From: Candidatus Micrarchaeota archaeon
GTDB taxonomy: Archaea > Micrarchaeota > Micrarchaeia > Anstonellales > Anstonellaceae
Direction: 5' to 3'
NCBI GenBank assembly: GCA_026396415.1
Contig: JAPLWX010000004.1
Location: forward strand, 1 to 63,176
DNA length: 63,176 nt
Position numbers and translations under genes: made by a program. Below, piece by piece: positions 210-58,188 of the stretch (position 1 is its first letter; every line of letters begins with the position of its first letter). The notes beneath the pieces were generated by a model. It saw only the letters and a list, made by a program, of their open reading frames with translations, was not told the DNA's origin and ran no database searches.

Positions 210-1311
210 TCAGGAAGTCGCGGCAATTCCGATTTTTGGCTGCGCGAGCATGTTTTCGATTTCTTTTTCCACCTCGTGGCGCAGCCTGTATGTGTCCCCC
301 ATCATCGCATATCCCTGCCAGCCAGAGTTTGAGAGGAGTATCCTGCTTTGCTCGATTTCTCCTCGCGCGTATTTTGACCTGAAAAGCGCAAGCCTGCCAA
401 AAACCCTGCGCACGTTGCTTTTCTTCAGGATGCGGAAATGGTAGAATGCCCTGAAGCCGAGAAGCTGCACACCTGAATCAAGCGGAATTATTTTCGTCTT
501 GTCAGGATGGAGTTCTATCTTGAGGCTTTCGCGCAGGAAGGCGTCAATCTGCATTTGCCACTCTTCCAATTGCTTCCTGCTACGATGCAGTATTATGAAA
601 TCGTCAACATAGCGCAGATAATATTTTGCGCGCAGCTTGTGCTTCACAAAATAATCAAGCTCGGAAAGATAGACGTTTGCAAAAAATTGGCTTGTCAAAT
701 TCCCCAATGGCATTCCTTTGCCGGGCGTATCCGTTTTGTGATTTTCGAGGATGCGCGAGATGAGCCAGAGCAAGTCCTCGTCCTTTATCCTCCTGCGCAG
801 GATGGAAAGGAGAACTCTGTGGTCAACAGTTTCGAAATAATGCCGGATATCGGCTTTGAGCGCAAAGCCGACAATCGGATTTTGACTCTCTCTCTCTCTC
901 TCTGCTTATTGTCCTTCCATTTCCAGTCACTCTTCGCGTGAAGCAGCCGAATCTCTTCAAGGCGGCAAGCGTGCCCTTTCCCCTCCTGTTTGCGAAAGTG
1001 TCGCTGATGAAACGACATTCGAAGATTGGCGAGATTACGTTGCAGACTGCGTGATGGATTACCCTGTCGCGGAAGTGCGAGGCTGAGATTTTCCTTGTCT
1101 TCGGGTCGCGGATGGTGAAGGTTGTCAGCGGGTGCGGCTTGTAGGTGCGTGTGAGAAGTTCCCATTGGAGGGCGTAAAGGTTGTTGTTGAGGTTCTTTTC
1201 AAACTCGATGACATATTCCTTCTTTGTTTTGCCCGAGCTGGCGTTAAGGAAGGCATCGTAGAGATTGTCATAGTCGCAGACTTTGGCGAAGAGATTGCGG
1301 TAGGTTTTCAT
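210..1311 (-). pseudogene. DGR reverse transcriptase, frameshifted at an (AG)9 tract (possibly phase-variable OFF state)
   Basis: N-part from ATG 1311 (MKTYRNLF...RDPKTRKISASHFRDRVIHHA...GKGT). C-part is in another frame (GFALKADIRHYF...GMPLGNLTSQFFANVYL...YLRYVDDF). The frame switch lies at 886-903. The GxPxGxxxSQ motif is DGR-type. Confidence 0.92.
886..903 (-). repeat. (AG)9 dinucleotide microsatellite inside the RT gene
   Basis: Plus strand ctctctctctctctctct. (AG)10 or (AG)7 would restore one continuous RT frame. Confidence 0.95.
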
Positions 1312-1341
1312 GAGTGGAAATGCCCTGAAGCCACCAAGAGT

Positions 1342-1448
1342 CATTCCAAAACGGTTAGGCCTGTTGTTGTCGTTGACGTTGCCGAAGTTGACGTCGAACC
1401 TGTTGTTGTAGTTGCCGAGATCGTTGTTGTCGCCGCGGACGGCAGGAC
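1342..1448 (-). ncRNA. DGR template repeat (TR)
   Basis: 107 nt with 31 adenines and 11 AAC codons. Aligns to 1850-1959 with substitutions only at TR adenines. Lies 30 nt upstream of the RT start. Confidence 0.95.
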
Positions 1449-1560
1449 GGACCGTAGCCCACTCACGCAAAACTTCCACTGCGGCTTCAAACGTTCAGCC
1501 TGCGGGCAGCAGGCTTACCAGCTGTCGCCGCTGCATTTCATGGCCGGATAGAACCGCCCA

Positions 1561-1656
1561 CTTTTTGCTTGCGGCAAAAAGGGGCCCCTTTTTCGCCATG
1601 CGAAAAAGAGGGGCACTATGAGGGGGCGTGTGGCTCTGAAGTTGCCTTCAGGGCAT
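1561..1656. other. Hairpin cluster between the DGR target gene and TR
   Basis: CTTTTTGC-ttgcg-GCAAAAAG; GCCCC-TTTTTCGC-cat-GCGAAAAA-GA-GGGGC; CTGAAG-ttgc-CTTCAG. Confidence 0.6.
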
Positions 1657-1678: not shown

Positions 1679-2560
1679 TTAAAGGCTTTTGGCAAGCTCG
1701 TTAATTTCGGCAACCTTCAGCTTCAGTTGGGCATCGGTCAGGTTGGGCAAGTCAACAAGCAGCTCGTTTATTTTTGCCTCTACATCTGCCTTGGTAACTT
1801 TTGCGCCAATCGCACTGGCTTCCCGCACAGGTGCGCCGTTTTCAGTTAACACCCCAAAACGGTAAGGCCTGACGTCGTCGAGGACGCCGAAGAGGACGTC
1901 GAACCTGACCCCGACGCTGAAGTAGCCGAGAACGTCGCCGACGCCGCGGACGGCAGGACCTGGCTTGTAGTAGTAAAGGCGACGTGTTTTTGTGGCATCA
2001 AAGGAACCTGCAATTTCCCCAAGAGGAGCGTTGAACTCCTGCTCAACATACCTCAGCTGACCGCTTTCGTACCTGCCATAGAAGAGGCGCAGGTTGGGAA
2101 GCGCGTTTTCAGGCACATGAATAGCATAGCTGTCTTTGCTTTTATCAACGATATTGTAGCCGTCCTCTATGACCGCGAAGGCGGGCTTTGTGAGGTCAAT
2201 TCCCATTTGCTTTGCCTGCGCTTCGGTAAAGAGGTAGAACCTGGTTGTTTCGCCCCTGAACTCTCCCTCCACATAGAACACGCCATTTTCTTTCTGGAGT
2301 TCGCCAAGAGGCACTATTTCCCCTTTGTGCATTGAGTTGGCGCCCATCAATCTTGACATGACCGGGTAAATTTCCCTCAGCACGTCTCTGTATTTTTGCC
2401 TTGTTTGCGGGTCAGTATAGACGAAATCGAGGTCCTTGTGCCTGATTATGTCCTTGTATTTCTGGAATGCGCCAGGCACGCGGATGCCACCCTGATTGTA
2501 GGACTCCCTGACCGTGAAGCTCTTGTTATTGGCTATGATAGTGCTACCGATAGTTGCCAT
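1679..2560 (-). CDS. DGR target (variable) protein, about 293 aa
   Basis: ATG 2560 (MATIGSTII) is preceded by a GAGGTG Shine-Dalgarno. The ORF contains the VR (PAVRG...RFDV...RPYRFGV) followed by a 56-aa helical tail. Confidence 0.88.
   Translation of the reverse strand: MATIGSTIIANNKSFTVRESYNQGGIRVPGAFQKYKDIIRHKDLDFVYTDPQTRQKYRDVLREIYPVMSRLMGANSMHKGEIVPLGELQKENGVFYVEGEFRGETTRFYLFTEAQAKQMGIDLTKPAFAVIEDGYNIVDKSKDSYAIHVPENALPNLRLFYGRYESGQLRYVEQEFNAPLGEIAGSFDATKTRRLYYYKPGPAVRGVGDVLGYFSVGVRFDVLFGVLDDVRPYRFGVLTENGAPVREASAIGAKVTKADVEAKINELLVDLPNLTDAQLKLKVAEINELAKSL
1850..1959 (-). repeat. DGR variable region (VR)
   Basis: 110 nt. 20 substitutions versus TR, all at TR adenines, plus one 6-nt insertion and one 3-nt deletion. 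Confidence 0.95.
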
Positions 2561-2936: not shown

Positions 2937-4214
2937 TCATTGTTCGCCCTTGAGCCTCCGCTGGGTCTGGCGAACCGTGATGTCTGCCAGCTTCCGCGCG
3001 AGGCTATCCATCTCCTTTTTCTGGGCTTCCTGCTTCTTTCCCATCTTCTCAATCTCGCTCTCCAGTTCCCCTATCCGCGTAATCTGCCTGTCGCTATCCA
3101 GCGGCTGCCCGCATTTTCCGCAGTAGTCAAGCCCCAATGGATTCTCAGCCTTGCACGCGCGGCACACGCGGTGCGTTTCTATTTTCTTCAGGGGCTCATC
3201 CTTGGCTTTCCCATGCACGTTGAGAATGGCGCGCTTCACCTGCTCGTCTGTAAGGTGAAGATAGGTACGAGGCATGTCGCTGCCGATTTCCCAGCCAAAA
3301 TACCTGCACAGTATCTGCTCAGTCATGCCTGGCTCGCCGCCAAGCTCGCTGGCGCGCGAATGCCGGAAGTTGTGCGGGTTGATTGGCTTGGTAAATTTTG
3401 GCAGGCCGTTCTTCTTGCGATGCTCGTTCAGGGCATCGCGGGCCTTGATTATCCGGTTGACAAACGATTGCCCGTCCATGGGCCTGCCGTTTGAAGGCCT
3501 TGCCCACAGGAGCGCGTCTTGTTTCTTGATTGGGTGCTCGTCAAGCCATCGCGCAAGGTACGTCTTGGCTTCAATGACAGTGATTCGGCGCTCCCCAGTC
3601 TTTCCGGCAGGGACTTTGATATCCACGCCCTCAGCAGTAAATGTCAGGTCGCCTTTCGTGAGCTGCCGCAATTCGCCCATCCTCATTCCAGAATCGAAAA
3701 GCGTGCAGATTACCGCCTTGTCAAGCGTATTGCCGAATTTGAGAAGCTCGCGCATCTCCGGGCGGGTTATCACTGGCTTTGCCACGCGCTTGTCCTTCAT
3801 GCTCGCCCCAAGCGCCATCATGTCCCTGATTTCCCAGGGTGCGCGCGCCATCGAGCCGTTTTTGAAGTGCTGGAAGCAATACGCGGAACCGAGCGTGCGG
3901 AGGCAGTCCTCCTTGCTTATGTGGGTGTAGTCATTGGCGTTTTTTATAGCCTGGACGGCCTCTTGCAGGGCTTTCTTGCTGCTAATCATCCCCAACAGGC
4001 TTTTCTTTGTGATGTTGTTTGCTATGCAGAGGTCGGTGCGGTATTTCTCCACCCTGCGGTCGCCAACCTTTACCCTCTTCTGGTATTGCGCCCATTTCGC
4101 AAACCTCAGGAAAAGCGCCTTGTCCTCGTTGGTCATCCACTTGCTTTTCCCTATCCGGCTTTTCCACTTCCCGGCATAGTTGTCCTCGGCAGTAATGAAC
4201 ATGCCATCACCCAT
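2937..4214 (-). CDS. Tyrosine recombinase/integrase with C-terminal zinc ribbon and coiled coil
   Basis: SGMRMGEL (R), GKTG (K), HNFRH (HxxR), FGW, RTYLH (Y); CRAC...CGKC. Lies directly downstream of a tRNA. Confidence 0.92.
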   Translation of the reverse strand: MGDGMFITAEDNYAGKWKSRIGKSKWMTNEDKALFLRFAKWAQYQKRVKVGDRRVEKYRTDLCIANNITKKSLLGMISSKKALQEAVQAIKNANDYTHISKEDCLRTLGSAYCFQHFKNGSMARAPWEIRDMMALGASMKDKRVAKPVITRPEMRELLKFGNTLDKAVICTLFDSGMRMGELRQLTKGDLTFTAEGVDIKVPAGKTGERRITVIEAKTYLARWLDEHPIKKQDALLWARPSNGRPMDGQSFVNRIIKARDALNEHRKKNGLPKFTKPINPHNFRHSRASELGGEPGMTEQILCRYFGWEIGSDMPRTYLHLTDEQVKRAILNVHGKAKDEPLKKIETHRVCRACKAENPLGLDYCGKCGQPLDSDRQITRIGELESEIEKMGKKQEAQKKEMDSLARKLADITVRQTQRRLKGEQ

Positions 4215-4289
4215 GCTTTATTGAAGATTAACTATAAAAAGTAGAGCGTTTGACGCCGTAGGCTCTCCAAAGTTATAAAAAAAAGAAAA

Positions 4290-4377
4290 CGCCGGGGGGG
4301 AGATTTGAACTCCCGAGTAGGTTTCCCCACAACAGGTTAGCAACCTGCCGCACTGGACCGGGCTATGCGACCCCAGC
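4290..4377 (-). tRNA. tRNA-Ser(GCT)
   Basis: GCTGGGG/CCCCGGC acceptor stem, GCAGG-TT-GCT-AA-CCTGT anticodon arm, long variable arm, GTTCAAATC T-loop, G discriminator, no encoded CCA. Confidence 0.95.
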
Positions 4378-4542
4378 ACGATCAAATCTCCGCAGAGATT
4401 TGGTCGGTATTTGTGAGCGAAGCTCACAAATCTGATGGCAAAGCCCGCGCACGGGCTTTGGCAACCCCTTTTAGGATGAAAGCAGGCTTTTATTCCTTTG
4501 CCGGATAATACCAAAAAGACGGCAGAAGCAAAAGGTGTGAAA

Positions 4543-57009: not shown

Positions 57010-58188
57010 TCACTTTGCGCCCTGCACATAGATGCCAATTATGTTCATCAGCTTGGCATACATGTTGCCGCTCGTGTCAGCCATCGAGTTTACGATGTCG
57101 GATGCCTGCTTGTCCGTTATCGTTGTTTTTGCAGTGGCTGTTGATGGCGACGGGTTTTCCACAGATGTGCCCGGCGCGGTTGCGGTTGGAACTGGCTTGG
57201 TTCCGGTGCTGGCGGTTGTTGCCGAGACAGGCTTGGTTCCTACAGCGCCAGGCAGCACGGCAATTGGCGGGGTGATTGCCACTGGCTTGGTCTCGCTGGC
57301 GGCAGGCGGCGCGGTTGTTGTTTGCTGCACCGCGGTGATTGCTGGCGTGATTGCCACTATTTTAGTAGTCGCTGGAGCCGTCCTGTTCGTGGTGTTGGTG
57401 CTGATGGCTGCGCCGTCGGGGCGCGCGGTTGTCTTGTTCGTGGTGTTGGTGCTGATGGCTGCGCCGGCGGGGCGCATTGTGGACCTGTTCGTGTTGTGCT
57501 TTGCCGCCGTCCTGTTCGTGGTGTTGGTGCTGATGGCTGCGCCGGCGGGGCGCATTGTGGACCTGTTCGTGTTGTTTGTTGAATTGTAGGCCGGCAGGGC
57601 GGAGGGCTTTGCCGCCGTCCTGTTCGTGGTGTTGGTGCTGATGGCTGCGCCGGCGGGGCGCGCGGTTGTCTTGTTCGTGGTGTTGGTGCTGATGGCTGCG
57701 CCGGCGGGGCGCGCGGTTGTCTTGTTCGTGACGTTGGTGTAATTATATCGAATCGCGCCCGGCATGTAGATGCCCAGGGTGTTCATCACCTCGGCATACA
57801 TGTTGCCGCTCGTATCGGCCATCGAGCTCAAGGTGTCGGATGCCTGGCCCGGAGCCATTGCGGGGGCAGCCATCTTGCTTGTGCTGTTGGAGCTGCCGCC
57901 CTGGCTGGCGCACGCGCCGTTGGAGCAGGAGAATACGCAGACTGCGTTGAGGCTGGAGATGCAGCTGCCTGAGCCGTTCATGCTTTGCGCGCACAGGTAT
58001 TCCGTCAGGTTCCTGCCAGTGCAAAAGTCCGTCCGCGAAACGGTCGCATTCGAGCCGCACATGGTGCCAGTGGCTGTCCCGCGGGCAAAAATGTTCACGC
58101 CCCCGTCGCTGTCATTGCAGAAGGCGGCCAGTGGCGAAAGCGCCATTGCCAGAATCATTGCCATGCCAAGCCACTTCATCCAAACCAC
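57010..58188 (-). CDS. Secreted Thr/Asn-rich repeat (mucin-like) protein
   Basis: Signal peptide, Cys-rich CNDSDGG domain, 17-aa repeats. Confidence 0.8.
   Translation of the reverse strand: MVWMKWLGMAMILAMALSPLAAFCNDSDGGVNIFARGTATGTMCGSNATVSRTDFCTGRNLTEYLCAQSMNGSGSCISSLNAVCVFSCSNGACASQGGSSNSTSKMAAPAMAPGQASDTLSSMADTSGNMYAEVMNTLGIYMPGAIRYNYTNVTNKTTARPAGAAISTNTTNKTTARPAGAAISTNTTNRTAAKPSALPAYNSTNNTNRSTMRPAGAAISTNTTNRTAAKHNTNRSTMRPAGAAISTNTTNKTTARPDGAAISTNTTNRTAPATTKIVAITPAITAVQQTTTAPPAASETKPVAITPPIAVLPGAVGTKPVSATTASTGTKPVPTATAPGTSVENPSPSTATAKTTITDKQASDIVNSMADTSGNMYAKLMNIIGIYVQGAK
57378..57730 (-). repeat. Coding tandem repeat, 51-bp unit (RPAGAAISTNTTNKTTA), 5 copies
   Basis: Near-identical DNA units GTTCGTGGTGTTGGTGCTGATGGCTGCGCCG. 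Confidence 0.9.

Follow-up and report, generated by a model that had tools for sequence, protein, structure and literature searches.

A split RT gene in a DGR cassette

Positions 210-2560 of the window, which is the whole stretch of DNA analysed (63,176 nucleotides, the entire contig C14 of a 1.74-Mb genome in 52 contigs), hold a DGR cassette on the minus strand, in the order target gene with VR, RT-16 RNA, TR and reverse transcriptase (RT). Along its whole length, the SSU rRNA of the genome fits the archaeal model, the database names of relatives are Micrarchaeota (DPANN), and the host is probably a small archaeon of the DPANN or Micrarchaeota. In window coordinates, the features of the cassette are:

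1679-2560, minus strand: target gene, 293 aa
1850-1959, minus strand: VR, inside the target ORF (1679-2560) and close to its 3' end
1449-1653, minus strand: RT-16 RNA motif (Rfam RF03019), abutting the TR on its 5' side
1342-1448, minus strand: TR
823-1344, minus strand: 5' part of the RT (frame A), with its start at ATG 1344 or ATG 1311
886-903, minus strand (coding): (AG)9 simple sequence repeat that breaks the frame, (CT)9 on the plus strand
210-905, minus strand: 3' part of the RT (frame B), open from 905, with its stop at 212-210

The RT is encoded in two frames that part company at the (AG)9 tract, between motif 1 (GKGT) and motif 2 (LKADI). Frame A reads ...GKGTLAALKRFGCFTRRVTGNGRTISRERERESKSDCRL...*, includes motif 1 (RRGKGT) and ends at a stop at 825-823, 20 codons past the tract; the upstream of its two possible starts, ATG 1344, lies within the 3' end of the TR and corresponds to the start in P0121 and P0008, relatives of the type found in a second, paralogous cassette on contig C31. 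Frame B, which is +1 relative to frame A, reads AERERESQNPIVGFALKADIRHYF...YVDD... and includes LKADI, GKGMPLGNLTSQ and YVDD. The Pfam family RVT_1 matches this 3' part (E 1.3e-14), as it does the C31 paralogue. Addition of 2 nt, giving (AG)10, or loss of 4 nt, giving (AG)7, fuses the two frames into 367 codons counted from 1311, for a restored RT of 367-378 aa depending on the start. No other lesion was found in the RT of the window: each half is an open frame, no RT motif is missing, and the cassette retains an intact RT-16 RNA, TR and VR. The continuous RT reading frame that marks an active DGR is interrupted at 886-903 in the window and is present in C31.

The remainder of the cassette identifies it as a true DGR, with a VR that underwent mutagenesis in the past. 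The TR and VR differ by 21 mismatches at TR adenines and by 5 at other bases, all of the latter in flanking columns, and the VR carries a 6-nt insertion and a 3-nt deletion relative to the TR, both multiples of 3. The nearest solved relative of the RT is the DGR RT 8ub7, by sequence (E 3.4e-62) and by Foldseek (E 1.2e-14). The initial annotation of this DNA had described an RT split at (AG)9 into two otherwise intact frames in the loop before LKADI, had predicted that one unit more or two fewer would give a continuous RT of ~367 aa, and had read the mutated VR as a sign of past RT activity; re-reading of the frames, the arithmetic of their offset and the adenine-specific divergence of the VR bore out these points.

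The RT-16 motif scored 55.1 bits in the window (E 8e-07; gathering score 50), and 81.8 bits in the C31 cassette. A hairpin element of ~58 nt lies inside the RT-16 match at 1554-1612 and recurs at 85-95% identity on at least six other contigs; one contig of run X6 skips 1555-1612, a presence/absence polymorphism. This element may account for the lower RT-16 score in the window (55 bits versus 82). The 293-aa target protein had no family match in Pfam or NCBIfam, and identical copies on record are limited to NCBI and Logan. The target proteins of both cassettes are singletons in clustering at 90% identity, so the clusters are uninformative about VR diversity.

Logan contigs from four runs in two studies match the window across the tract, showing 0 differences and 0 gaps, and cover 112-1300 in X1-X3 and 512-1486 in X6 at a depth of about 9-22. 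(AG)9 was the only length seen at the window locus, both in the four run assemblies and in proteins P0250 and P0004 from NCBI and Logan, and the VR was likewise identical across the contigs of the four runs; these read data are contigs, in which minority tract lengths and VR variants collapse. A search of metagenome contigs for the two flanks of the window's tract, separated by a variable gap, gave 0 matches.

The tract and its counterpart in a paralogous cassette

The repeat is exceptional in its own genome. The window contains a single match to (AG)9 at up to 1 mismatch, which is the tract itself, such a match was absent from 100 of 100 dinucleotide-preserving shuffles of the window, and no other dinucleotide tract of at least 6 units occurs in the window. 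Across the 1.74-Mb genome, only two dinucleotide tracts reach at least 7 units, the (AG)9 at 886-903 and a (CT)10 at 4511-4530 of C31, and both fall in DGR RT loops. The C31 tract sits in the same RT loop, where it is in frame as (AG)10. The genome also has G/C runs of 9-11 nt elsewhere (C15:20027, C21:2483, C26:34890), none of which is an obvious intragenic frame switch.

The DGR on C31 is complete, with an RT of 366-377 aa reading ...IIQREREREPLPNSIVGFALKADI... and its own TR and VR, which differ by 17 adenine mismatches. The two loci share 78.7% identity across 1319 nt; the 5' part of the window RT matches residues 1-142 of the C31 RT at 85% identity, and the 3' part matches residues 138-362 at 83%. 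Two orphan 3' RT fragments also occur in this genome, at C29:20391-20642 (92%) and C44:1192-1374 (75% identity to the end of the C31 RT), and these fragments are remnants of further cassettes.

Selection, loop structure and repair genes

Both halves of the split gene carry the signature of purifying selection. Comparison of the window with C31 gave dN/dS values of 0.079 (5' part) and 0.129 (3' part) at a dS of about 0.94, implying that for most of its history the window RT has evolved under constraint. In the three pairs with unsaturated dS in which both members are out of frame, dN/dS was 0.06-0.16 in both halves, which indicates that the split genes are maintained.

Alignment with the solved DGR RT 8ub7 shows the repeat-bearing loop as an insertion of 17 residues. 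In a structure model of the RT, residues 143-171, including the peptide encoded by the tract, are unstructured (pLDDT <50); the model is modest (mean pLDDT 69.9) and was used for loop disorder alone. On both counts the loop looks tolerant of length changes. The genome, which is 92% complete, contains no match to the MutS, MutL or NucS families, and the instability of repeats should therefore be high.

Tract length variants in public protein sets

Homologues were drawn from a set of 5.8 billion proteins, with the best 120 retained for each RT half, and their tract lengths are inferred from peptides, not DNA. Among the best 120 homologues of the window 3' half, 34 are at least 320 aa long and 81 are shorter than 260 aa; among the best 120 of the 5' half, 60 end just past RERE, GGG or PPP peptides.

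Length polymorphism appears among near-identical relatives. In the 131 residues that precede the tract, the C31 RT, with (AG)10 in frame, shows 0 differences from P0121, with (AG)12, and P0241, with (AG)8, and a single difference from P0244, with (AG)11. P0242, P0247 and P0248 share all 131 pre-tract residues and have three tract lengths. The same holds for relatives at 85% identity to the window 5' half, P0122 with (AG)11 and P0251 with (AG)8 (0/131 differences), as well as for the full-length P0020 (361 aa) and the split P0140 (0/131 pre-tract differences). A single 90% cluster mixes 368-aa forms (P0262, P0265) with split forms (P0002, P0260, P0266). Alleles in the public sets differ by up to 4 units, and from these peptides the tract appears to be the fastest-changing part of the RT gene, visiting all three frames.

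Five relatives at 81-86% identity (P0001, P0002, P0003, P0006 and P0007) read AERERES in the downstream frame, as does the window, implying the same inferred tract length and the same OFF frame. A length shared with five relatives is odd for a freely drifting tract, and could reflect a preferred resting length or a rescue at the RNA level. No full-length allele above 83% identity to the window 3' half occurs among the best 120 matches listed (proteins of up to 405 aa).

In RT sub-lineages that have no repeat in this first loop (P0188, P0197, P0209, P0212, P0214, P0217 and others), 5' fragments end after GGGG, THTHTHTHTHTH or RERERE. The stretch that separates the LWLI helix from the GKGMPLGNLTSQ motif is a second loop, and it is there that these fragments end, marking a putative second repeat hotspot in DGR RTs.

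Loop repeats across the order

Among 176 genomes of the order that were searched, 37 had RT matches at E <=1e-30, most of them in two pieces with a junction near residue 150. A loop repeat of at least 8 nt between GKGT and LKADI was present in 33 of the 38 RT loci that could be parsed, with the following frame states:

Repeat-bearing, out of frame +1: 15/33
Repeat-bearing, out of frame +2: 12/33
Repeat-bearing, in frame: 6/33
Without a repeat: 5/38, all in frame

One of the out-of-frame rows, G160, has an N gap in the tract between G9 and G11. The tally leaves aside G149 (C63/C105) and G110, where contigs break at the tract, along with G031:C8 (5'-truncated), a fragment on G031:C29, two distant RTs (37-38% identity) and the C29 and C44 remnants described above. 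In G149, the end of contig C63, together with C105, and in G110 the start of contig C26 lie within or beside the RT poly-G tract. The RT copy on G031:C8 has lost its 5' end as far as the repeat loop, immediately ahead of ALKADI, and is preceded by unrelated sequence.

The position of the repeat is conserved and its kind differs: G8-22, C8-12, (AG)5-12 and (AC)4-6 all occur in the loop. Shifts in both directions are represented, the window needing +1 unit and the (AG)7 of G033 needing -1 unit to restore the frame. In a quick tree of 33 RT 3' halves, which omits rows missed by the motif filter (e.g., G006), repeat type changed at least 11 times and frame state at least 7 times. In five relatives, G/C runs of at least 9 nt number 1-4 per genome, and the RT run is always among them. 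With the N-gap locus excluded, 26 of 32 repeat-bearing loci are out of frame; against the neutral expectation of 2/3 the binomial P is 0.054 for rows that are related to one another, and the out-of-frame state is not clearly in excess over neutral drift.

Single-protein searches of genome contigs and of viral contigs each returned one distant relative (38% and 31% identity, respectively), with a short loop that has no repeat. An alignment search of metagenomes found 574 relatives, of which the best 80 were taken; this ranking favours uninterrupted matches and is unfit for ON/OFF proportions. Of these 80, 34 were parsed and 33 were usable (L086 was mis-parsed from an upstream anchor site), all in frame, and tracts of at least 8 nt occurred only in L045, (AG)6, L078, G8, and L080, A8.

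A candidate contingency switch on a mutator

Contingency loci in which simple sequence repeats drive phase variation are known in Campylobacter, Neisseria, Haemophilus and Helicobacter. The RT locus shares several traits with such bacterial loci: an intragenic poly-G/C or dinucleotide repeat at which the gain or loss of units shifts the frame, a gene that is intact on either side, and a scarcity of long repeats elsewhere in the genome. Length polymorphism on identical backgrounds, another such trait, is seen in the C31 paralogue and in relatives. The locus differs from the bacterial ones in that the host is a small-genome archaeon, in which switching within populations would be predicted from the sequences, and in that the gated gene is a targeted mutator enzyme, whereas the bacterial examples are usually surface or restriction-modification genes.

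We therefore interpret (AG)9 as a slipped-strand contingency switch that gates hypermutation through the RT and that is OFF in this cassette, with a probability of roughly 0.7. A lineage-specific loop between RT motifs 1 and 2 hosts a simple sequence repeat, and slipped-strand mispairing at replication, the putative cause of the length changes, would add or remove repeat units. Each unit change would move the catalytic two-thirds of the RT into or out of frame, and would thereby toggle adenine mutagenesis of the VR in a heritable and stochastic manner. The (AG)9, one unit short of the in-frame length, would leave the window cassette OFF, and the (AG)10 would leave the C31 cassette ON. OFF alleles would halt mutagenesis and in this way lock in a VR, and switching would be expected to be reversible within a lineage. 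The uniform VR in the four runs fits an OFF cassette, if weakly.

The phase-variable ON/OFF state had been proposed in the initial annotation, with a survey of related DGR RTs for repeats among its suggested checks and, as an outcome that would point to a simple pseudogene, an invariant tract whose homologues have no repeat there. Simple repeats do occur at the same loop in homologues, and otherwise identical sequences differ in repeat length, with in-frame and both out-of-frame forms represented. The proposal is supported by both sets of observations, which come from relatives; for the window locus itself, switching is what they would predict.

Recoding at the RNA level offers a different account of the same repeat. 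Here the out-of-frame gene would be the working state, and a low amount of full-length RT would be made through RNA polymerase slippage or ribosomal frameshifting; the tract would then tune the dose of RT without switching it off, an arrangement that could coexist with switching at the DNA level. The G/C runs of 9-22 nt, and an 18-nt dinucleotide repeat, which is longer than an RNA-DNA hybrid, could in principle realign during transcription. Purifying selection on both halves of out-of-frame genes, the out-of-frame majority (27/33) and the inferred length and frame that the window has in common with five diverged relatives also fit such recoding. A programmed frameshift would, however, hold one fixed frame, whereas +1, +2 and in-frame states are found here even on identical backgrounds, and the repeated changes of repeat type on the tree (at least 11 among 33 RTs) show that neither a slippery site nor a stimulator is conserved. 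The differences in length are, moreover, present in DNA assemblies. A programmed frameshift in one direction is ruled out by the occurrence of both shift directions, a classical programmed frameshift is unlikely since neither frames nor repeat types are conserved, and we regard recoding in general as improbable, though leaky transcriptional slippage may still contribute.

Less probable again is a plain pseudogene, in which the RT was killed by a one-unit deletion, the repeat serves no function and the cassette is in decay. The single tract length at the locus and the invariant VR in the four run assemblies would suit this explanation, and dead RTs do exist, both in this genome (the C29 and C44 fragments) and in relatives, where G031:C8 and G089:C4 are truncated and G131:C7 is decayed. 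Against it, no second lesion is found in the RT or the cassette, dN/dS against the intact C31 paralogue is 0.08-0.13, and 27 loci in many genera are broken at the same loop with intact halves, unlike random decay. A sequencing or assembly artefact at a low-complexity tract, which the initial annotation had named as a possible refutation, is very improbable: repeats are error-prone and in some relatives (G149, G110, G160) the contigs are broken or contain N at the tract, but contigs assembled from four runs in two studies all agree on (AG)9 at a depth of 9-22, its 18 nt are shorter than a read, and alleles in the public sets vary by up to 4 units.

The contingency switch on the RT can be set beside known retroelements and mutators. 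The cassette resembles the DGR of the Bordetella phage BPP-1 type (PDB 8ub7 series) in RT sequence and fold and in a TR and VR with adenine-specific mismatches; it differs from the BPP-1-type RT 8ub7 in possessing the repeat-bearing 17-residue loop, which is absent there, and, compared with that type of DGR, it has an RT-16 RNA upstream of the TR and no evident avd-like gene. DGRs of DPANN and Nanoarchaeota (PMC4372165; survey in PMC5758913) are likewise archaeal and share the order target, TR, RT. The main texts of these two papers contain nothing on a frameshifted or repeat-broken RT gene, and their lone mention of a frameshift concerns TR/VR indels. Similarly, the literature searched holds no description of repeats in DGR RT genes, its scope being exclusive of supplements and of the 2017 survey of DGRs in candidate phyla and DPANN. 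The coding homopolymers of MSH6 and MSH3, in the available portion of PMC11250277, provide a parallel in that a slippery repeat in a gene for mutation rate makes mutability switchable; that case, unlike ours, concerns a genome-wide mutator in eukaryotic tumour evolution. What would be new here is phase variation by simple sequence repeats, itself a known process, acting on a targeted mutator.

For a large clade of archaeal DGRs, we lean slightly towards the view that the repeat-gated RT is a built-in and long-kept design, with an insertion loop dedicated to a hypermutable repeat that switches type. Given no recognisable mismatch repair, such a design would give rare stochastic bursts of mutagenesis and otherwise a locked state, and cassettes would switch independently, as in this genome, where one appears ON and one OFF.

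DGRs are, to our knowledge, the only known natural systems for targeted protein hypermutation in prokaryotes, and the control of their activity is largely unknown. A heritable, stochastic switch of the RT would, if true, explain the broken-looking DGR RTs of small-genome archaea, the presence of a VR that is stable in one population and diverse in another, and the means by which a cell is spared constant mutation of a variant that is already successful. VR diversity in metagenomes should then be predictable from tract length, and functional DGRs would be missing from the counts of pipelines that filter out frameshifted RTs.

Surroundings of the cassette

A tyrosine integrase (window 2937-4378; Phage_integrase, E 1.8e-15) with a C-terminal zinc ribbon lies beside a tRNA-Ser and adjoins the DGR, and the cassette may be carried on an integrated element. 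On the other side, positions 1-141 of the window show a weak Rfam match to a model of group II intron D1-D4 (18 bits, E 0.8), and the first 135-144 nt recur at 98.6-100% identity at the ends of contigs C31, C18, C27, C23, C21, C7 and C13; this segment is likely to be a multi-copy element, at which the assembly breaks a short way downstream of the RT. Far from the cassette, at 57382-57739, the window also contains a tandem array with periods of 51 nt and 78 nt and up to 4.4 copies.
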